This document shows, in pieces, positions 7,745 through 25,175 of a DNA stretch of 32,000 nt. The translations under genes were made by a program, and so were the position numbers. A model generated the notes under the pieces. It worked only from the letters and a program-made list of their open reading frames with translations, made no database searches and was not told the origin of the DNA. Origin of the DNA: Methanothermobacter marburgensis str. Marburg. Its GTDB lineage: Archaea > Methanobacteriota > Methanobacteria > Methanobacteriales > Methanothermobacteraceae. The DNA lies in assembly GCF_000145295.1 (NCBI RefSeq), contig NC_014408.1, positions 240,001 to 272,000 on the forward strand. Direction: 5' to 3'. How positions within the stretch are numbered: the stretch's first letter is position 1; the number at the start of each line of letters is the position of its first letter.

Positions 7745-9190
7745 TTAGAGACCATTCAACCATCTGAGACCTGTGAGTTCTGCCACATCCTTTTTAAGGG
7801 CTACAAGGTCCTCGTGATTCAGTTTTTTAATATCATTCTTTCCGGTTATCCTTGCAAAATCAGCGATTTCGGCTGTTGATACTCTTATATAGTTTTCAAG
7901 CCGTTCAGCAGCCTTCTTGGTGTCCAGGTGCTTCACAAGGGCAGGGTCATGGGTGGTTATACCCGTTGGACACATGCCTGTGTGGCATAGCCTGTGCTGC
8001 TGGCAGTTCATGGCAATAAGGGCCGCGGTACCTATGTAAACTGCATCTGCACCCAGGGCAAGGCATTTTGCCATATCAGCCCCTGTCCTGAGGCCTCCCC
8101 CTGCAATCAGGGATACTCTACCCTCAAGGCCCTCGTTGACAATAACCTTGGCGGCCCTGGGTATGGCTGCAATGAGTGGTATGCCTGTGCTGTCCCTTAT
8201 ATGCGGGTTAACAGCACCTGTACCCCCTCCAAATCCATCGAGAGCTATGAAGTCAACACCGGCATCAAGGAGGGCTTTCACATCGTCCTCAACGTTTCCA
8301 CATCCGATCTTGGCACCAACAGGAGAACCTCCAGAGAGTTCTCTTAGGTATGATACCTTCTCTCTGAGTTCCTCCTGGTTTCTGATGTCAGGGTGATGTG
8401 CGGGAGAATATGAGCCCTCACCTTCTTTAAGCCCACGAACCCTTGCCACGTCATCTGTGATTTTTTCAGGGGGCAGATAACTTCCTTTACCTGGGTATGC
8501 CCCCTGACCGAATCTTATTTCTATGGCGGCGGCCCTCTGAAGTATATCCTCTGTGACTCCGAATCTACCTGTTGAATACTGGACTATGAGGTAATCTCCA
8601 GCCTTCTCCATCTCATATTCAAGGACGCCCCCCTCACCTGAATTGAAACCTATCCCCAGTTTTGCTGCAGTGGATGCAATGGCCATCCTTGTGTTTTTTG
8701 AGACAGCACCATAGCTCATACCGCTTATCATTATGGGGGAGCTCAGTTTCAGGGGTTTGTCTGCCATCTCCCCTATGGTAACACCTGTTTCCACGGGTTC
8801 ATCTGCGTTTAGGGGTATGGAGGACACCTGTGCCGGTACAAAGTGTATGTCATCAAGTCCAAGCGGCAGCCTCTTTTGAGATCCCATTGACTCCAGGGGC
8901 GCTTCACCTGTTGCTGCAGCCTCCTTGATATGGATTATGTTCATGTGGTCACTGTGACTTTCGGAGGGACCTTCCCTCCTCATACGGATGCCATTCAGTG
9001 ATTCCGTGTTACAGAAATAGAGTTCCCTGAGGCCATATTTCTGATAAACAGGGCATGATGTGCAGAGACATCCCCTTTCATTAACCTCGTATCTGCTGCT
9101 CCCGGTGGCACAGAAGAGCATCTCATCGTCCCCGTGGCCGGGATAACTCGGGCAATCCGGGCATAAACATTCCCTGTCCTGTTCCTTCAT
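7745..9190 (-). CDS. glutamate-synthase large-subunit domain-2-like FMN/Fe-S protein with a duplicated N-terminal Cys-rich module
   Basis: The C-terminal ~400 aa matches the GltB FMN-binding domain (ISGMSYGAVS, DFIALDGFGGGTGA, GGGLRTG). The N-terminus has two C-x-C-x2-CP-x-Y...FC repeats. Confidence 0.75.
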   Translation of the reverse strand: MKEQDRECLCPDCPSYPGHGDDEMLFCATGSSRYEVNERGCLCTSCPVYQKYGLRELYFCNTESLNGIRMRREGPSESHSDHMNIIHIKEAAATGEAPLESMGSQKRLPLGLDDIHFVPAQVSSIPLNADEPVETGVTIGEMADKPLKLSSPIMISGMSYGAVSKNTRMAIASTAAKLGIGFNSGEGGVLEYEMEKAGDYLIVQYSTGRFGVTEDILQRAAAIEIRFGQGAYPGKGSYLPPEKITDDVARVRGLKEGEGSYSPAHHPDIRNQEELREKVSYLRELSGGSPVGAKIGCGNVEDDVKALLDAGVDFIALDGFGGGTGAVNPHIRDSTGIPLIAAIPRAAKVIVNEGLEGRVSLIAGGGLRTGADMAKCLALGADAVYIGTAALIAMNCQQHRLCHTGMCPTGITTHDPALVKHLDTKKAAERLENYIRVSTAEIADFARITGKNDIKKLNHEDLVALKKDVAELTGLRWLNGL

Positions 9191-9825: not shown

Positions 9826-10398
9826 CTAGGAATTCAGAGTATGGGTGTGGGCAGTATCAAAACCGTTGTTTTCGTAGAGGCTCAGCTCATCCTTCAGCTG
9901 CTGTATTATTTCAGAGTTGTCCATGAATTCCATTTTAAAGCCGCATTCAGGGCATGGGAAGTTCTCTTCAGCAACTTCATCGAAGGTGAAACGGTAATGG
10001 CCGTTTTAACATACAAAGAAAATGGTTGTTCTCCTCAAAGTCCAGGGCTTCCCTGAGTTTTTTTAACTATTTCTCCGTGGTTCCTCTTTATCATTTCTGT
10101 AACCTTTTCAGGGTTCAAATTTCCATGTGTAGGTGTACCACTGCGTTTCAGGGTCCTTGCTTCTCTTGTAGCTTGCCACCCCCGCATCATAGAGTTTGTA
10201 GAGTATTCTTCTGACTATGTTGAGTTTAAGCTGGGTTTTTTCTGAAATCTCCTCATCTGTTACATTCCCCTTCATGAGGCACTCCAGAACTGGCACTGCC
10301 TCATCCTCTTCCTCCTCAGTGATAATCTCATGGATCAACTCTTGTAGCATCTGATCATCAATCAATTGAAATCCTCCAGCTTTGAGAAATAACTGCAT
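9826..10398 (-). pseudogene. tfe: transcription factor E (TFE, TFIIE-alpha homolog), reading frame interrupted three times
   Basis: Intact winged-helix N-terminus (10398-10111). The remainder (EKVTEMIKRNHGEIVKK / [18 protein letters not shown] / [21 protein letters not shown]...) is found only by shifting +1 at 10113-10108 (CCC TGA), 10064-10058 (A7) and 10007-10004 (A4). The final Zn-ribbon segment returns to the original frame and stops at 9828-9826. Confidence 0.7.
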
Positions 10399-10487: not shown

Positions 10488-11330
10488 TCACTTCAGCGGG
10501 GGTCTAACAATAACCGCCGGCACATGTTCCAGTGAGGACAGCATTTCAACCGTAACTGTTTCGGGTTCACTTTCAAGTTCACTGGCCATATCATACACGG
10601 TTTTTCTGCTACTGTGCCTTTCATGGTACTCCTCGGCTACGGATGCCACCTCAAGGAGCACCTCAGTGGCAGCGGGCCTTGAGGATGCAAGGGGTGTTGG
10701 CCATCTTTTCCTGGAAAACCTCCCTGCAATGTAACCCAGGAACCCGGTATCTGAGATTATACCCGGTGCAGCTGTGGGAAGTGATGTGAAATACCTCCCA
10801 AGGATTCGGTAGGTTGCGTCGGTGTCAATAACAACCACGGTGACATCGACACCGAATTTACTCAGAATCCCCTCTGCAATGGATTTTGCAGTACCCACAG
10901 GGTTTTCAGGAAGAAGTGAAACATATGTGCCGGGGACGTTGCTCAAATCAATTCCGGCCTCTGAGGCCGGTTTGAGGGCATGTTTCAGCCCATAATATCG
11001 GAGCACAACCTCCTTATGGTTTCTTGCCTCGGGGGGGAGGTTTCTAAGGTTTTTCAGGGTTCTTTCCTTTATTCCAAAAATGGGTCCGAGAACATGGCCC
11101 CAGATGTACTTTGACCAGAGGTCTGCAAGAATGATGGCGGTCCTGGAGGCTTCAAATTCTGATTCATCAACGAGGTTTCCCTGGGCAACCGAGATGGGGG
11201 TTTCAGAGACCACAAGGAAATCCCCATCAACTACCAGTTCACCTGCCCTCTCCATGATTTTCCATAAACCCTCACCAGGCTTTATGTAGTCCGTCCTCAC
11301 AGGTACCGTGGTGTATCCATCTCTGGGCAT
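10488..11330 (-). CDS. CofE-like protein (F420-0:gamma-glutamyl ligase family paralog)
   Basis: IKPGE...DGDFLVVSETPISVAQG and AGIDLSN motifs typical of the F420 ligase fold. At 280 aa with insertions, it is probably not the canonical CofE. Confidence 0.55.
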   Translation of the reverse strand: MPRDGYTTVPVRTDYIKPGEGLWKIMERAGELVVDGDFLVVSETPISVAQGNLVDESEFEASRTAIILADLWSKYIWGHVLGPIFGIKERTLKNLRNLPPEARNHKEVVLRYYGLKHALKPASEAGIDLSNVPGTYVSLLPENPVGTAKSIAEGILSKFGVDVTVVVIDTDATYRILGRYFTSLPTAAPGIISDTGFLGYIAGRFSRKRWPTPLASSRPAATEVLLEVASVAEEYHERHSSRKTVYDMASELESEPETVTVEMLSSLEHVPAVIVRPPLK

Positions 11331-11386: not shown

Positions 11387-12094
11387 TCATCTGGCCCTCA
11401 CAGGCGGGGCCCAGACCTTGAGGTCTATGCCCTCTATGATGGCCCTCCTGCCTTCAAGCTGTACCACGACCCCTGAGTGGACCTTCTGCATCATGCAGTG
11501 GGCCGGGAGGAATCTCACTGTGTCGCCGATGTTGGGGAGTTCCCCATCGATCATGCCCTCGAAGCCCCCCACCAGGCAGACCCCGATGTCCCTGAACTCA
11601 AAGTCCTCGCTGCCAAGGCGGTGACATGGCCCAACGATGTGGACAGTTATGAGTCCGTTGTTTTCATCCAGTATCTCTGCAAAGTGGGTTATGGGGCACC
11701 CCAGGGGTCTGTAACGGATTATATCCCCCTTTTTAAGCTCAGCCCTTGAAAATGGAAAGAGTACCTCCCTGCATGAACCCTCCTTAGGGAGGGGCTTCAG
11801 TATGAAATCTGCCTCGTACCCGTCAAGGACACCCACAACCTTCTTCTCCTCTGGCAGGAGGTCCTCCTCCTTGAGGATCTCCTGGAGCTTCTGAAGGTTG
11901 TCTGTAAAAAGCTCCTGGTACATGAAGTGGCATCTGTCGATCTCTGTCCGCCCCTTGAGGAGTGCGGAGGCATATTCGTCGCACCTTGCATAGCCGCAGA
12001 TACCGCAGTTGTATCCGGGAAGAAGTTCTGTAACCCTTTCTCTGAGTGATCTGTCTCCTGGCATCTGAAAGACCCTCTTTTCATTCTCCCTCAT
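11387..12094 (-). CDS. Fe-S protein with an RnfB-type N-terminal [4Fe-4S] module and an unassigned C-terminal domain
   Basis: C-x2-C-x4-C-x16-C ([13 protein letters not shown]...IDRC), as in RnfB and corrinoid Fe-S protein N-termini. Alternative start at ATG 12064 (MPGDRS), preceded by GAGGGT. Confidence 0.65.
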
Positions 12095-12782
12095 AGGTCT
12101 GGAAGCCGTCTATTCTTCTGAGTATTCCCCTGTGGTGCTTCTTATTGACCCTTGTCTCGCCCACACAGAGGGTGCAGACTGCAAGGGGTGCTGAGTGACG
12201 GAGTTCCTCGTTTTCAAGGGAAACCTCTCTGCTCTCTATCATTTCCTCTGCAAGTTCCATGCATCCCTGTCCGCTGAGGCCATTTGCCTCTATTATCTTT
12301 GCCGATGGGTTAACCTCCAGTATACGCTCCCTGAATATTTCCCTCTCTGCCTGGGATATCATATCCCCCTTGGTAACAACAGCAATGTCTGCGGTTGAAA
12401 GGAAGGGCCCAACCTTCAGGGGGGTGTTGGGGCCGCTTGTAGCGTCTATAACGCAAACACCCAGGCAGTTCTTTGTGTAGGGGGCGCAACGGTGACACAA
12501 TCCTGCTGTTTCAATGATAAGGAAGTCAGATTCATTCTTCTCGGCCCATTTTATCATGTCATCTATGTTGTAGATGGCGTAGTGGTCCGGGCACATATCC
12601 ATTGAGAGGCCCACAAGGGTGGGCGCACCTATCTTCTCAAACTTCTTGTCGTCATCGGTGTATAGGCAGTCTATTTTAACCACCGATGAATTGAATCCCC
12701 TCGCCTTGAGACTCTTCAGTGTGTGCATGAGGACTGCTGTTTTCCCGGATCCTGGTGTTCCAGCAACTATTACCATTCTCAT
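12081..12782 (-). CDS. G3E-family-like P-loop NTPase (HypB/UreG/CobW-like putative metallochaperone)
   Basis: Walker A GTPGSGKT, Walker B/G3 IIETAG, G4-like VTKGD. Cys/His clusters [13 protein letters not shown] and a C-terminal CTLC. Order and spacing are as in HypB. Confidence 0.65.
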
Positions 12783-12817
12783 ATCCTTTCCCTTCTGTAA
12801 CTGGTGCAGCTTTCAGC

Positions 12818-13597
12818 TTAACCTTTTATTATCTCTGTGAGGTCTATGCTCTCAACCAGCTCTCCCCTCCGCACCTTCTCACGGAGGCTGAGCATGAGTT
12901 CATCTATCTTGTTGAGTTCACGGGATATCTTCTTCTCCTGGGCTGTTGTTGTAACTATCTTCTGCATACCACCATGCTTCATCACTATTCTCTTGTCGGT
13001 CATGAGTGCAAGCACAGGGTCGTGGGTTACAACCAGAACTATTTTACCGTGTCCTGCCAGCACCTTGAGCGCATCGTGTTTCCTTATACCTGCATTTTCA
13101 ATTTCATCTATGAGCACTATGGGAGAGTCACTTATTATGGCAACATCTGCAACCATGAGGGCCCTTGACTGCCCCCCGCTGAGTATTGTGAGGTCGTGCT
13201 CCTTTTTGATGGGTTCACCGGTGAGGGTGTTTGCAAGTTGGATCACACGGTCCACGCACCTTTCACTGGCACCCCGGCACTTGGCGTGGAGGCTGAGAAA
13301 CTCTCCCACTGTCATGTCCGCCAGGAAGTTCATGTTCTGGGAAAGCTGTGCCACCATCTTCTTTCGGGGGTTTGTACGGTCCTCGTAACTTGGCTCTTCG
13401 TCGTTCACCAGGATTTTTCTCTTGGAGAAGGTGTCCTTCTGGGCCAGCTGTTCGATGTCACCTATAAGTGAGCTTTTACCGCTTCCTGTTGGGCCGACCA
13501 CACCAAAAATTTCACCTTTTCTTATTTCAACCTTCTCAACCGGTTCCTTCTCTCCGTATTTGTCATAACCGCCAATTACTGTGATTTTCTCTATCAT
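12818..13597 (-). CDS. ABC-type ATPase (single nucleotide-binding domain, no cognate permease in the window)
   Basis: Walker [10 protein letters not shown], signature LSGGQ, Walker B VLIDEIE, H-loop VTHD. Its start shares base 13597 with the comA stop (TAATG). Confidence 0.85.
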
Positions 13598-14373
13598 TAA
13601 AGATTCACCTTTCCGAGAGTATCTCCCCTCAAGCCTCTTCTTATGGTTTCAAGGGCTGTTATCTCTTCGGGGGGTATGTTTCCAAGGTTAACGTCTGGTC
13701 CTATTTTCAGTATGAAGTAAACCTGCTGGTTTTTCTGGGGGGCCTCCCATATTATCCTATCCTGCGGGAGTTCATTGAGGAGGTGGTTGAATTCTTCCTC
13801 CTTTACGTTTCCATTCTCATCGTATATACCTATATTATGGCCGCTCTCCCGGGCCTCCATGAGCACCATGCAGGCTCCAGCTTTGAGGTCGGCCCTGACA
13901 AGTTCAACCCTATCCTCCGGGCTGAGAAGTCTGTCCCTTACCGGGTCCTTTTTACCAACCTCTGATATGATCTGGAACCCCTCGTTGACCGCTTTCTCTA
14001 TAAGTTCACATTTTTCATCGGTTTCAATCTCAACGGTTCCATTTGATATTTCCAGTGTTTCAAAACCAAGGCTTCTTGCCTCGTCAAAGTACTCCTGAAT
14101 TTTATCGTTGAGATAGGCGATCTCAAATAGGGTGCCCCCAGGATAGGCCTCCACATCGAATGAACGGTACATCTCAATTTTTTCCATGACAGCGTCACGT
14201 CTGTGGAGGGGGAGGGTTCCCCATCCAAACTTTATGAAATCAACGTAATCTGATGAAATCTCCATGAGGTCACGGGCTGTTTTAATGCCCATTCCCTTAT
14301 CGAGAACCATGGTTATTCCATTTTTTCTGGGTTTCCCACGCCTTGGAGGTGTGAGAAAGTCAAAGGCGTTCAT
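13597..14373 (-). CDS. comA: (2R)-phospho-3-sulfolactate synthase (coenzyme M biosynthesis)
   Basis: Collinear with ComA as I recall it: [52 protein letters not shown]. Confidence 0.9.
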
Positions 14374-14475
14374 TTTATCACCTTCTGGATTGAGTCAGAA
14401 TAAACACCAACGGCATATTAATTTAAATTCATATGTTTACTACCTTTATAAATAATTTTTCTTATAACAGGTTTC

Positions 14476-14569
14476 ATGGGATATCAATCTGAATCCCATC
14501 CACTATCGGGGATCTTATCGTAACGGGAGATTCTATAAGTTGAGTCCCATCACTATTTTGGGATCTTAT
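14476..14569. promoter_or_regulatory. repeated TCCCAT/ATGGGA-type motifs in a divergent promoter region (putative operator sites)
   Basis: Two 26-nt units (14493-14518 and 14544-14569, 51-nt period) share tcccatc..actat..gggatcttat. Each holds an internal inverted repeat, and an extra ATGGGA half-site lies at 14476-14481. Unit 2 abuts the AT-rich TATA-like ttattatatattaa. Confidence 0.4.
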
Positions 14570-14597
14570 TATATATTAATAGGTGGTGGTACATGTG

Positions 14598-15155
14598 ATG
14601 GAGAGTATATGTTACTTTGAAAGACCAGGTAAGGAGAACACTGAAAGGGTCCTTGAACTTGTTAAGGAAAGGGCAGATAAACTGGGGATCAGGGACTTTG
14701 TGGTGGCCTCGGTATCCGGTGAAACAGCACTCAGGTTATCTGAGATGGTTGAGGGAAACATTGTTTCTGTAACACACCACGCCGGTTTCAGGGAGAAGGG
14801 CAAACTTGAACTTGAACCCGACATGAGGGAGAAACTGATTGAAAGGGGCGTCAGTGTATATGCAGGTTCACATGCACTCAGCGGTGTTGGAAGGGGGATA
14901 TCAAATAAGTTCGGCGGAGTCACACCTGTTGAGGTGATGGCTGAAACCCTCAGGATGGTTTCACAGGGCTTCAAGGTATGTGTTGAGATATCTATAATGG
15001 CAGCTGACGCAGGCCTTATACCTGTTGACAGGGAGGTCATAGCCATAGGCGGCACTGCATGGGGGGCTGACACGGCCCTGGTTCTCACACCGACGCATAT
15101 GAACAGCGTATTTGACCTGAGAATCCATGAGATCATTGCGATGCCAAGGCCATAG
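14598..15155 (+). CDS. conserved hypothetical protein, pyruvate-kinase C-terminal-domain-like (alpha/beta) family
   Basis: 190-aa ORF (open from GTG 14583; ATG 14598 follows AGGTGGTGG). Methanogen-conserved sequence ([11 protein letters not shown]..., GTAWGADTA) with no catalytic assignment. Confidence 0.6.
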
Positions 15156-22759: not shown

Positions 22760-24007
22760 GTGATTAATTTGAGGAGGACCATCTCAGAAATAAATGAGAG
22801 GATACTGGATGGTGAAGCAACCGTTTTAACAGCCGGGGAACTCAAGGAGCTGGTCCTCAACGATGAGGCCCCATCTGCAGATGAGGTTGACGTGGTAACA
22901 GCGGCCACCTGCGGTGTAATGTCCGGGACAGCAGCGGTAATGCATTTCAGGGTATCTGAACCTGGTTCATTCAGGAAGGCTGTTTCAGCTGAACTGAATG
23001 GCATACCAGCGTATCCTGGCCCATGTCCAAATGAAAACCTGGGTTCAGTGGACCTCTTCATTTATGGGACAGCCAGAAGCGTCAGGGACCCTGAATATGG
23101 CGGCGGATTTCTTCTCAGGGACCTTCTCATTGGATCTGAGGTTGATGTGACTGTAAAGTCAGAGGATGGAACTTCCATTGAATCCACAGTTACCCTGAAG
23201 GATATTGAAACAGCGAGGATCATAGGAACAAGGATGGCATTCAGAAACTACACAGCAATTGTCAATCCATCAGATAAACCTGTAAGATCCATATTCAATG
23301 CATTTGAAATGCCACCCCACTGTGGAGGCCTCTCATTCTCAGGCTGCGGTGACATCAATCCCCTTGAAAATGATCCAGGCATGGAGGCCATCAGGAGGGG
23401 AACCAGCGTACTCTTAAATGGTGCCAGGGGCCTCGTGCTGGGTGAGGGTACAAGGAGCAGCCCTGAAAGACCAAATCTCATGCTGAGCGGGGACCTGCAT
23501 GATATGAAACCTGATTACATTGGGGGATTCAGGACAGCCGCAGGACCCGAGATATTCAACACCATCGCAGTCCCACTGCCCGTGACATCTGAGAGGGTCT
23601 TTGAGAGACTGCTGGTTCTTAATTCAGATATAGGGTTACCTGTTGCAGACGTGAGGGATCGATCAAGGATAATCCATGATCTGACATATGCGGATACATG
23701 GGCTGGTGACGAGAGACCCACCTATAACCCTGAAAGGTGTGCTGACTGCCTCCCATGCCTGGCAGCGGAGAGGTGCCCAACCCATGCAATAGGGGATGGA
23801 CTGGACACCGATAGGTGCTTCGGATGCGGTGTATGTGCCTTCTCATGTCCCTACGGGGCGTATGAGATGGATACAGGTGAGGTCAGGATTGGTGATAGGA
23901 CGGTACCCATCGTATGCAGACAGTCAGACAGGGTGAGGGCATCCAGCCTCGCCCGTGAACTCAAAGAACTCATAGAAAAGGGTAATTTCCTCATAGGGGG
24001 GTGTTAG
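22760..24007 (+). CDS. COG1900/DUF39 (homocysteine-biosynthesis-type sulfur-insertion) domain fused to a 2x[4Fe-4S] ferredoxin domain
   Basis: N-terminal TISEINERILDGEATVLTAGEL and TAATCGVMSGT, typical of COG1900. C-terminal CADCLPC...CP and CFGCGVCAFSCP. The start may be TTG 22769 (GGTGA upstream). Confidence 0.75.
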   Translation: MINLRRTISEINERILDGEATVLTAGELKELVLNDEAPSADEVDVVTAATCGVMSGTAAVMHFRVSEPGSFRKAVSAELNGIPAYPGPCPNENLGSVDLFIYGTARSVRDPEYGGGFLLRDLLIGSEVDVTVKSEDGTSIESTVTLKDIETARIIGTRMAFRNYTAIVNPSDKPVRSIFNAFEMPPHCGGLSFSGCGDINPLENDPGMEAIRRGTSVLLNGARGLVLGEGTRSSPERPNLMLSGDLHDMKPDYIGGFRTAAGPEIFNTIAVPLPVTSERVFERLLVLNSDIGLPVADVRDRSRIIHDLTYADTWAGDERPTYNPERCADCLPCLAAERCPTHAIGDGLDTDRCFGCGVCAFSCPYGAYEMDTGEVRIGDRTVPIVCRQSDRVRASSLARELKELIEKGNFLIGGC

Positions 24008-24032
24008 TATTCTTGAATATGATGTTATACTT

Positions 24033-25175
24033 GTGAGATACGGTGAGGTTGCAATTAAGGGGCCGGCTGTTAGAAGGAGATTTGAAAAAAAACTCCTCAG
24101 CAATATAAGGGCTGCTTTCAGCTGCAGAGCAGAAATCAGGCATGGAAGAATATTCGTATTCCCTGATAACATGGATGAGGCCCTTGATAAACTTTCAAGG
24201 ATCTTTGGGGTGGTATCCTTTTCACCCGCGGTGACTGTGGAAACCGATTTTGATGTTATAGAGGTGGCGCTCCGGGAATATGTGGGTGAACTGAAACTGG
24301 AGGGTCTCATCACAGAGAGAACACCCTTTGCCATAAGATGCAGAAGGGTTGGGCAGCATGACTTCACAAGCCAGGAGATGGCAGCCTTTGCAGGTTCAGT
24401 TGTGGTCAGGGAGATCGGGGCCCCGGTGGACCTTGGAAACCCTGACCTTGAGATCCACCTTGAAATAAGGGAGAACAGGACATACATCTACCACAGGGTC
24501 ATCCAGGGTCCTGGCGGCCTGCCTGCCGGTACCCAGGGCAAGGTTGTTGCCCTTTTATCCGGGGGAATAGACTCACCTGTTGCCACATATCTCCTCATGA
24601 AGAGGGGATGCCAGGTCGTTGCGGTCCACACCGATAACTCACCATTCACAGCTCCCGAGTCCCTTGATAAGGTTGAGAAAATCGCTTCAAAACTTGAGGA
24701 GTATTCTGCTGGAGTTGAATTCAAACTCAGAATTTTCAGGTATGGAAGTTACCTTGAAAAATGCAGGAGAGAAGCCCCTGAGAATATGACTTGCGTCCTA
24801 TGTAAGGCTGGAATGTACCGCCTCGCCGAGATGGTTGCAGAGGAGGAGGGGGCACTTGCAATAGTGGATGGGAGCAGCCTCGGGCAGGTGGCATCCCAGA
24901 CCCTTCCAAACATCCTCGCCACAAGGATGGCGGTGAGGATGCCTGTCCTCAGCCCCCTCATAGGCATGGATAAGGTGGAGATAGAGGCCCTTGCAAAGAG
25001 GATAGGCACCTATGACATCTCGGTGATACCCGATGGTGGATGCGGTGCTGTACCCCGCCATCCCTCAACGGCAGCGGATACAGCCTCCATCAGGGAACTC
25101 TCAGAAAAAATCCAGGTTGAAGATGAAATTGAGAAGATATTCAGATCAGCTTCAGAAACAGAAAGCCCTGAATGA
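24033..25175 (+). CDS. thiI: tRNA 4-thiouridine/thiamine sulfurtransferase ThiI (THUMP + PP-loop, no rhodanese domain)
   Basis: RYGEVAIKG, PP-loop LLSGGIDSPVA, and a CVLC plus GGCGAVP Cys triad. GTG 24033 is the only canonical start, but conserved residues continue upstream to 24009 (see findings). Confidence 0.9.
   Translation: MRYGEVAIKGPAVRRRFEKKLLSNIRAAFSCRAEIRHGRIFVFPDNMDEALDKLSRIFGVVSFSPAVTVETDFDVIEVALREYVGELKLEGLITERTPFAIRCRRVGQHDFTSQEMAAFAGSVVVREIGAPVDLGNPDLEIHLEIRENRTYIYHRVIQGPGGLPAGTQGKVVALLSGGIDSPVATYLLMKRGCQVVAVHTDNSPFTAPESLDKVEKIASKLEEYSAGVEFKLRIFRYGSYLEKCRREAPENMTCVLCKAGMYRLAEMVAEEEGALAIVDGSSLGQVASQTLPNILATRMAVRMPVLSPLIGMDKVEIEALAKRIGTYDISVIPDGGCGAVPRHPSTAADTASIRELSEKIQVEDEIEKIFRSASETESPE

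Follow-up and report, generated by a model that had tools for sequence, protein, structure and literature searches.

A conserved ATPase-GTPase-Fe-S gene trio behind comA very probably belongs to sulfonate biosynthesis and may supply its sulfite

Without coenzyme M (CoM), there is no biological methane formation and no anaerobic oxidation of methane and alkanes. We analysed a 32-kb segment of the Methanothermobacter marburgensis chromosome (the window; all coordinates are window positions), in which the CoM biosynthesis gene comA is followed head to tail by genes for an ATP-binding cassette (ABC) ATPase, a GTPase and an Fe-S protein of COG2000. These three genes (MTH1673, MTH1672 and MTH1671) are called the trio here. 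The four genes are arranged as follows:

13597-14373, minus strand: comA (MTH1674), phosphosulfolactate synthase; TIGR03849 339.4 bits (cutoff 280), PF02679 322 bits.
12818-13597, minus strand: soluble ABC-type ATPase (MTH1673), 259 aa; PF00005 56.6 bits.
12081-12782, minus strand: Cys-rich G3E-class GTPase (MTH1672), 233 aa; PF02492 50.5 bits.
11387-12064, minus strand: COG2000 Fe-S protein (MTH1671), probably 225 aa; PF04060 49.5 bits; the alternative ATG at 12094 would give 235 aa.

The comA stop codon (13599-13597) and the ABC start codon share base 13597 (TAATG), and 35 nt separate the ABC gene from the GTPase gene. The GTPase stop codon (12083-12081) is bracketed by two possible starts of the Fe-S gene: the ATG at 12094 overlaps it, and the ATG at 12064 starts 16 nt further on. 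A CofE-like gene starts 56 nt downstream of the Fe-S gene. All of these positions had been given in a preliminary description of the sequence and were found correct on re-reading. Most homologues of the Fe-S protein have 225-230 aa and align from the Met at 12064, which has an AGAGGG Shine-Dalgarno-like motif upstream. The homologue lengths and the alignment from this second Met make 12064 the likelier start (225 aa, 11387-12064). The protein is 99% identical to its counterpart in Methanothermobacter strain THM-2. The locus tags of the trio are based on the published identity of comA with MTH1674 (Kaster 2011, PMC3087415), and the divergent neighbour of comA, MTH1675 (PDB 1T57), supports this mapping.

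The ABC protein is a member of the ABC ATPase superfamily (PF00005 56.6 bits, cutoff 25) with a full motif set. Walker A (G35-S42), Q87, LSGGQ (139-143), D164/E165 and H192 were invariant in 26 of 26 sequences, and 74 residues, including E165 and H192, were invariant across these diverse members. From these residues, the ATPase is predicted to be catalytically competent. It carries a C-terminal helical extension, has no conserved Cys and is without a membrane partner.

The protein might also be the nucleotide-binding domain (NBD) of an importer for sulfonate, CoM, sulfite or a metal, whose permease is encoded elsewhere and whose two neighbouring genes are passengers. Its generic NBD fold and motifs would fit, and its nearest solved relatives are the transporter NBDs MJ0796, ArtP and MalK. 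However, the best NCBIfam equivalog match reached 60 bits against a cutoff of 375, and no transporter equivalog (cutoffs 250-550) scored higher, so the protein falls into no equivalog family. The preliminary description had named a grouping with a known transporter NBD family as counting against its idea, and no such grouping was found. Profile searches of the window proteins revealed no permease, energy-coupling factor (ECF) or binding-protein gene in the 32 kb, again as described earlier. No permease or substrate-binding protein was a recurrent neighbour of the trio across the 137 dereplicated loci introduced below, and the ABC gene was always collinear with the GTPase and Fe-S genes. An importer is most unlikely.

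The GTPase belongs to the G3E class by its PF02492 match (50.5 bits, cutoff 20.7), its invariant TKGD and nucleotide motifs, and its G3E fold. The best Foldseek matches were HypB (2HF8, 4LPS, 2WSM) and UreG (4HI0, 5XKT), with TM values of 0.65-0.79 at about 20% identity. It shares with them the fold, the motif order Walker A-ExxG-(N/T)KxD and a Cys-(Pro)-His motif between Walker A and B, and its Cys-Pro-Asp-His motif aligns with the Ni-binding CPH of UreG. Nine Cys and His residues were invariant in 26 members (C39, C64-P-D-H67, C96, C99, C110, C203, C206 and H217). However, the protein is not HypB or UreG proper (TIGR00073 53.6 versus 121.2 bits; TIGR00101 28.3 versus 204.2 bits). It lacks the N-terminal CxxCGC or His-rich Ni site, possesses the additional C39, C96, C99, C110 and a CxxC...H tail, and never adjoins hydrogenase or urease genes (no hyp or ure genes were present in any trio locus examined). 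Instead, it is always paired with the ABC ATPase and COG2000. It is not a COG0523/CobW protein either, with no CxCC motif, no CobW_C Pfam match and just 15.9 bits for ZigA.

The C-terminal tail of the GTPase is nearly invariant (C203-x2-C206, H217, R222, D225, Y230 and E233). In the AlphaFold2 (AF2) model (mean pLDDT 76.5), the G-domain was confident, but the tail (residues 198-233) was not placed. The near invariance of a tail that the model leaves unplaced suggests that it may fold on a partner or a metal.

The Fe-S protein carries the motif C20-x2-C23-x4-C28-x16-C45, in which all four Cys are invariant. PF04060 matched residues 25-56 only (49.5 bits, cutoff 23), and the PDB sequence matches were confined to the N-terminal 45 or so residues. 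This part is predicted to be a [4Fe-4S] domain of the type found in RnfB and the corrinoid Fe-S protein CoFeSP. The protein is not a full-length RnfB or CoFeSP large subunit, since no extra ferredoxin or TIM-barrel corrinoid domains were matched. The C-terminal part (about 150 aa) was modelled by AF2 as an all-beta, double beta-barrel structure (pLDDT 87) and gave no Pfam, PDB-sequence or significant PDB-fold match. In an exhaustive search of 1.84 billion proteins, its profile recovered just 98 cluster representatives, none of them a fusion and all of one small architecture. The C-terminal part of COG2000 is thus an orphan domain. Nine Cys and His residues of the protein are invariant, namely the four N-terminal Cys, C98, C123, H127, C190 and H196, and C163 is near-invariant. 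The motifs that the preliminary description had read in the three proteins (the NBD set, the motif order and Cys/His clusters of the GTPase, and the C-x2-C-x4-C-x16-C motif) were all borne out and are invariant in 26 diverse members.

One genome scan gave 225 relatives among about 185,000 species genomes, and one metagenome scan gave 383; both numbers are lower bounds owing to the strict search patterns. After dereplication, 137 loci remained, with all three genes visible in 123. The order ABC-GTPase-FeS on one strand was kept in 123 of 123, across five phyla, an arrangement far beyond chance. The archaeal carriers were Methanobacteriales, Methanococcales and Methanosarcinales (including Methanothrix, Methanolobus and ANME-2), and the bacterial ones were Bacillota (Sporobacter, Papillibacter, Anaerofustis, Eubacteriaceae), Bacteroidota and Spirochaetota. 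The preliminary description had asked whether the trio is syntenic in other genomes and restricted to methanogens or to genomes with comA. The synteny holds, and the trio also occurs in bacteria, at loci without comA.

The proteins are also strongly conserved in sequence. Compared with the window proteins, those of Methanobacteriaceae loci were 79-88% (ABC) and 80-88% (GTPase) identical, at least as conserved as FtsZ (75-83%). In the bacterial loci L073-L085, where FtsZ was not present, the identities were 62-72% for the ABC protein, 65-72% for the GTPase and 54-60% for the Fe-S protein. The trio is an autonomous, probably complex-forming module.

In several Methanobacterium loci (L008, L014, L016, L027, L063 and others), the ABC and GTPase genes are separated by inserted, unrelated genes. 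The trio can therefore open at its middle junction, while the comA-ABC and GTPase-FeS junctions remain tight. The inserted genes were considered as meaningful neighbours and rejected, being heterogeneous (TPR, PAS, MBL-fold) and often on the opposite strand. An apparent ABC-GTPase fusion in L083 was a frame artefact in a genome of 70% GC.

In Methanobacteriales, the trio lies in a frozen block of FtsZ, MTH1675, comA, trio, CofE-like gene, TFE and HD, and in 96 of 97 loci comA and the ABC gene overlap at their stop-start junction. In this lineage, comA leads the unit and serves as the functional anchor of the module. Outside this order, comA and the CofE-like gene drop out. In Methanosarcinales, cysteate synthase (CysS) takes the position of comA (TIGR03844 568-604 bits, cutoff 325), and in 9 of 9 loci it overlaps the ABC gene or lies no more than 20 nt from it. 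The wider archaeal context was again that of CoM synthesis: CysS-trio-ComD-ComE with a convergent MMP16 in Methanolobus (L170) and in L168; CysS, ComDE, an FAD protein, a small radical-SAM protein and the trio in an ANME-2 locus (L171); CysS and the trio in Methanothrix (L169); and MMP16 immediately preceding the trio in one more clade of archaea (L142, L148/149).

Similar arrangements were found in bacteria. In about ten Bacillota loci (L002/L076, L073, L074, L078, L082, L085, L086, L087 and L100 among them), the trio is followed by cysteate synthase, with 449-457 bits where it was scored (L073, L074, L082). L094 (GC 64%, Spirochaete-type) has the same order (CysS 478 bits). The Bacillota operons continue with an acyltransferase of the BioF/Kbl/serine-palmitoyltransferase type and a KDS-reductase-like short-chain dehydrogenase/reductase (SDR; six loci), and often include a conserved double glyoxalase/VOC-fold protein of about 355 aa. 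This content corresponds to the three initial steps in the synthesis of capnine-type sulfonolipids (assignment per PMC11211663). As an observation in its own right, these are complete-looking capnine-type operons, with a CFAT-like alpha-oxoamine synthase, in anaerobes of the Oscillospiraceae/Eubacteriales type. Sulfonolipid synthesis is mostly discussed for Bacteroidota.

Altogether, a sulfonate-pathway gene lay within 8 kb of the trio in 21 of the 46 non-Methanobacteriales loci. The neighbouring comA, CysS, ComD/E and MMP16 all scored above their NCBIfam cutoffs. In a concatenated tree, at least five separate trio clades adjoined sulfonate genes, with differing partners and on differing sides. 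The earlier suggestion that the linkage to comA points to CoM metabolism is strongly supported by these clades. An intermediate view, formed after Methanocaldococcus and two bacterial metagenome-assembled genomes (MAGs) without comA, had taken this linkage for mere local synteny and was overturned by the cysteate synthase and CoM-cluster loci. A link to metal homeostasis, suggested by Fur, ZnuABC and DUF364 genes that precede the trio in one Clostridiales MAG, was rejected since this context did not recur in other loci.

The frozen Methanobacteriales block, and the roughly half of the remaining loci without a nearby sulfonate gene, could also mean that the trio has a housekeeping function unrelated to sulfonates and was merely carried along by frozen synteny and by hitch-hiking in horizontal transfer. 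However, the partner (comA, archaeal or bacterial CysS, MMP16, ComDE) and its side vary in at least five clades, while the type of pathway stays constant. The chance of finding a given single-copy gene within 8 kb is well below 1% per genome by a rough estimate. An adjacency without functional meaning is highly improbable, and the trio very probably belongs to the biosynthesis of sulfonates, as judged from these gene neighbourhoods. The product would be CoM for methanogens and ANME, and a capnine-type sulfonolipid for anaerobic bacteria.

ComA joins phosphoenolpyruvate and sulfite to phosphosulfolactate, and cysteate synthase exchanges the phosphate of phosphoserine for sulfite (PMC12713407, PMC3087415). 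They start the two alternative archaeal routes to CoM. The two enzymes are unrelated, and sulfite is their sole common co-substrate and the one factor shared with the two end products. Cysteate synthase also opens sulfonolipid synthesis. Since the trio is coupled to whichever of the two enzymes is present, in both domains of life, it most economically serves their common factor, sulfite. We therefore favour a role of the trio in sulfite supply, with a probability of roughly 0.45-0.5 for this reading of the gene contexts.

A source of sulfite is indeed needed. CoM synthesis requires sulfite, for which Dsr-LP has been suggested as the oxidiser of sulfide, and some methanogens are without both Dsr-LP and Fsr (Susanti and Mukhopadhyay, PMC3448663). 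The source of the sulfite "remains unclear" (Yu et al., PMC6286981), and the sole published candidates for the sulfite of CoM are Dsr-LP or alSir working in reverse (PMC3448663, PMC6286981). For growth on sulfide only, sulfite must be made internally for ComA or cysteate synthase. Fsr, alSir, Dsr-LP and sHdr are possible functional analogues of the trio, as they interconvert sulfide or sulfane sulfur and sulfite. Unlike them, the trio has no sequence or fold relationship to these enzymes and no siroheme, Hdr-like CCG or lipoate-binding domain, and it involves both ATP and GTP.

The trio has the parts expected of a redox metalloenzyme whose accessory subunits are driven by nucleotides. COG2000 would be the redox and catalytic subunit, whose N-terminal [4Fe-4S] domain would pass electrons. 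Its C-terminal Cys3-His2(+Cys) site would bind a metal or cluster on which the oxidation of sulfide or persulfide takes place. Loading or gating of this site might fall to the HypB/UreG-like GTPase dimer, acting by way of its Cys-His interface and its invariant CxxC tail. ATP-driven conformational work, for an unfavourable oxidation or for handing over toxic sulfite without free release, could come from the ABC ATPase dimer. As estimated from standard potentials, oxidising sulfide to sulfite is strongly endergonic when the physiological acceptors are of low potential, which makes a need for nucleotide hydrolysis plausible. Put together, the trio would be a siroheme-independent, ATP/GTP-powered "sulfite synthase" of strict anaerobes, which oxidises sulfide or persulfide on the Cys/His site of COG2000 and hands the product to ComA or cysteate synthase. 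We offer this detailed version tentatively and regard it as a doubtful possibility. Gene order, conservation, motifs and genomic association were observed; the complex, what it acts on, which way its electrons flow and how its subunits share the work are what we infer from the parts and their context.

SufBC2D offers a precedent for ABC-driven work on a metallocluster site, as it combines a single-NBD ABC ATPase without membrane partner with a Cys-containing partner. Unlike SufBC2D, however, COG2000 has no SufB/SufD homology, no SufC model was among the top NCBIfam matches listed for the ABC protein, the trio has an additional GTPase, and its context is sulfonate biosynthesis and not Fe-S housekeeping. 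By analogy with HypAB, UreDFG and SufBCD, the trio could mature the metal or Fe-S cofactor of a metalloenzyme in the CoM pathway, for example MMP16, with the GTPase delivering the metal and the ABC protein and Fe-S protein acting as scaffold. A machine of this kind had been the leading idea of the preliminary description. Consistently, the GTPase is structurally HypB/UreG-like with a retained Cys-His metal motif, and MMP16, a "metalloprotein" with a ferredoxin insert, adjoins the trio in L142, L148, L168 and L170 and also occurs in the window. However, the Bacillota and Spirochaete-type operons have the trio with cysteate synthase and without MMP16 or ComDE. In established enzymology, ComA (Mg-dependent) and cysteate synthase (dependent on pyridoxal phosphate) need no special metallocentre. 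The conservation of the ABC protein and the GTPase, which is not below that of FtsZ, also speaks against such a service role. Cofactor maturation is thus unlikely.

The same MMP16 adjacency would suit an ATP-driven delivery of low-potential electrons (a reductive activase), for example for the thiolation of sulfoacetaldehyde by ComF. The PF04060 module is common to the CoFeSP large subunit and RnfB. The activation of methyl-CoM reductase (MCR) by A2/AtwA with Fe-S marker proteins, and the RACo/CoFeSP pair, likewise combine an ATPase with low-potential Fe-S modules, and the pairing of a soluble ABC ATPase with Fe-S proteins is reminiscent of MCR activation in particular. However, A2 has two NBDs and a separate model, TIGR03269, which was not among the best 25 of 143 NCBIfam matches of the trio ABC protein. 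The trio adjoined mcr or methanogenesis-marker activation genes in no locus, and is also carried by bacteria without MCR and without an acetyl-CoA pathway context. Its tightest coupling, by overlap, is with ComA or cysteate synthase, neither of which is a redox enzyme. The bacterial operons contain no reductive thiolation step, and their KCR step is performed by an ordinary SDR. Overall, an activase is quite unlikely, and the trio belongs to no characterised system. This agrees with the preliminary description, which knew of no assigned function: no family-level Pfam or NCBIfam match exceeded its cutoff, and no literature on MTH1671-1673, MJ0119-0121 or COG2000 function was found.

Some lineages showed further neighbours of the trio. 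In ANME-2-type loci (L158, L162, L167, L171), two genes on the same strand lie directly upstream of the trio, between it and ComDE. One encodes a geranylgeranyl-reductase-family FAD protein (about 396-408 aa) and the other a small radical-SAM protein (209 aa, TIGR04038/TIGR04100-like). These two proteins could be lineage-specific redox partners of the trio. In Bacteroidota (L004, L075, L088, L156), divergent regulators of the Crp/Fnr and Rrf2 families always precede the trio, and they are 88% identical between L088 and L156. These neighbours suggest that, in Bacteroidota, the module is regulated by redox state or sulfur.

The Rrf2 and Crp regulators in Bacteroidota, and a LytTR two-component system in Bacillota, would also be in keeping with a trio that senses, buffers or detoxifies sulfite, protecting the cell or controlling flux without producing sulfite. 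Sulfite poisons both methanogens and Mcr (bioRxiv 10.1101/2024.03.05.583561). However, such a function would let us expect Fsr or Dsr-LP as a neighbour and not translational coupling to a biosynthetic enzyme that consumes sulfite. Moreover, bacteria without Mcr hold the trio inside a biosynthetic operon. This explanation is distinctly improbable.

Several points weigh against sulfite supply. The functional case is one of guilt by association, and no experiment, expression data or phenotype for the trio was found in the literature; an RB-TnSeq preprint on M. maripaludis held no data for the trio genes. In 25 of the 46 non-Methanobacteriales loci (those of Bacteroidota, most Spirochaetota and Methanococcales), no sulfonate gene lay in the fetched flank. 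The CoM cluster of M. acetivorans (MA3297-3299) is without the trio, and no Methanosarcina homologue was among the top-120 matches listed. The M. acetivorans cluster implies that the module is not universal among CoM producers and that other sources of sulfite must exist. The trio has no likeness to known sulfite-forming or sulfite-reducing catalysts, with no siroheme-binding fold, Hdr-like or molybdopterin domain, and no electron acceptor for the oxidation of sulfide was identified. Characterised G3E proteins are metal chaperones and not parts of a catalytic cycle. Finally, the adjacency of MMP16 (L142, L148) equally fits sulfide delivery, thiolation or its electron supply. Separately, the "GTP-binding protein" MA4556, induced in the CoM-starvation transcriptome of M. 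acetivorans, was considered as a trio member and rejected; it adjoins the corrinoid protein MA4558 and RuBisCO MA4555.

The other features of the window that relate to this locus are as follows:

10488-11330, minus strand: CofE-like paralogue; PF01996 87 bits, TIGR01916 57 bits versus a cutoff of 181.
22760-24007, plus strand: MMP16/ComF (CoM synthase); TIGR03287 586 bits (cutoff 364).
14583-15155, plus strand: MTH1675 homologue; PDB 1T57, stand-alone pyruvate-kinase C-terminal-domain fold.
14445-14452, minus strand: candidate archaeal TATA box TTTATAAA, 72 nt upstream of the comA ATG; tentative, from sequence reading only.
14509-14518 and 14560-14569, read on the minus strand: 10-nt direct repeat ATAAGATCCC, two copies 51 nt apart in the comA/MTH1675 intergenic region.
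9826-10398, minus strand: TFE (TFIIE-alpha) gene, interrupted by three in-frame stops.
7745-9190, minus strand: glutamate-synthase FMN-domain protein; PF01645 424 bits, N-terminal Cys-rich DUF2769.

The CofE-like gene adjoined the trio in Methanobacteriales only, with a median gap of 126 nt to the Fe-S gene, and it is probably not part of the module. The true CofE is encoded elsewhere, by MTH1019 (Kaster 2011, PMC3087415). The MTH1675 homologue was present in 85 loci, each with comA, and never adjoined the trio in other settings. As the MTH1675-like and CofE-like genes are limited to Methanobacteriales, they were not counted as module parts. The MTH1675 family has reportedly been crystallised with a flavin.

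MMP16/ComF was absent from the preliminary description. Its distance to comA is only about 8.4 kb, and a 13-kb part of the window spans this gene together with comA and the trio. MMP16/ComF is directly followed by ThiI (tRNA 4-thiouridine sulfurtransferase, 438 bits), so that the CoM synthase is paired with a sulfur-transfer enzyme (22760-25175, plus strand). A 209-nt intergenic region common to comA and the divergent MTH1675-like gene contains the TATA-like TTTATAAA. Each ATAAGATCCC copy lies near a GATGGGAYTCA motif, upstream of the TTTATAAA box, and the repeats are possible regulator sites upstream of comA.

The TFE gene contains the stops TGA 10110-10108, TAA 10065-10063 and TAA 10008-10006, each at an A-run. 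TFE-like sequence can be read in other frames between the stops, and the zinc-ribbon part is recognisable. This pattern indicates either assembly errors, namely indels at homopolymers, or a gene in decay. The PF01645/DUF2769 protein is of the archaeal stand-alone GltS-like type and occurred in just 12 fetched loci, all with comA.

ComA was reportedly characterised in 2002, and the origin of its sulfite is said to have been an open question since. The genes of the trio themselves have been noted before. Chadwick et al. 2025 (PLoS Genet, PMC12068725, Fig. 2B legend) reported that genes for an ATPase, a Ni2+-binding GTPase and a COG2000 Fe-S protein, the same genes as described here, co-localise with CoM genes in methanogens of six orders, with a role given as unknown. 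That paper contains no mention of sulfite, bacterial homologues, cysteate synthase or sulfonolipid operons, the displacement of comA by CysS, or the protein features. Beyond it, we found no literature on the trio locus tags, COG2000 function, bacterial homologues or a link to sulfite. What appears to be new is that cysteate synthase replaces comA, that bacterial sulfonolipid operons contain the trio and that the C-terminal domain of COG2000 is an orphan, together with the conserved Cys/His inventory and the proposed link to sulfite.

In conclusion, the trio tracks a sulfite-consuming enzyme in both archaea and bacteria, which yields a testable hypothesis with named genes (MTH1671-1673). If the trio does supply sulfite, the CoM pathway would be complete, and a new sulfur-oxidising chemistry, with an orphan metal-binding fold and two NTPases, would be at hand. 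It would show how sulfidic, sulfate-free cells obtain oxidised sulfur without poisoning Mcr. It would also account for how anaerobic bacteria of the gut and of digesters make sulfonolipids, and provide a methanogen-specific target for methane mitigation. Even if the idea about sulfite is wrong, the trio would stand as a highly conserved, uncharacterised component of CoM biosynthesis.

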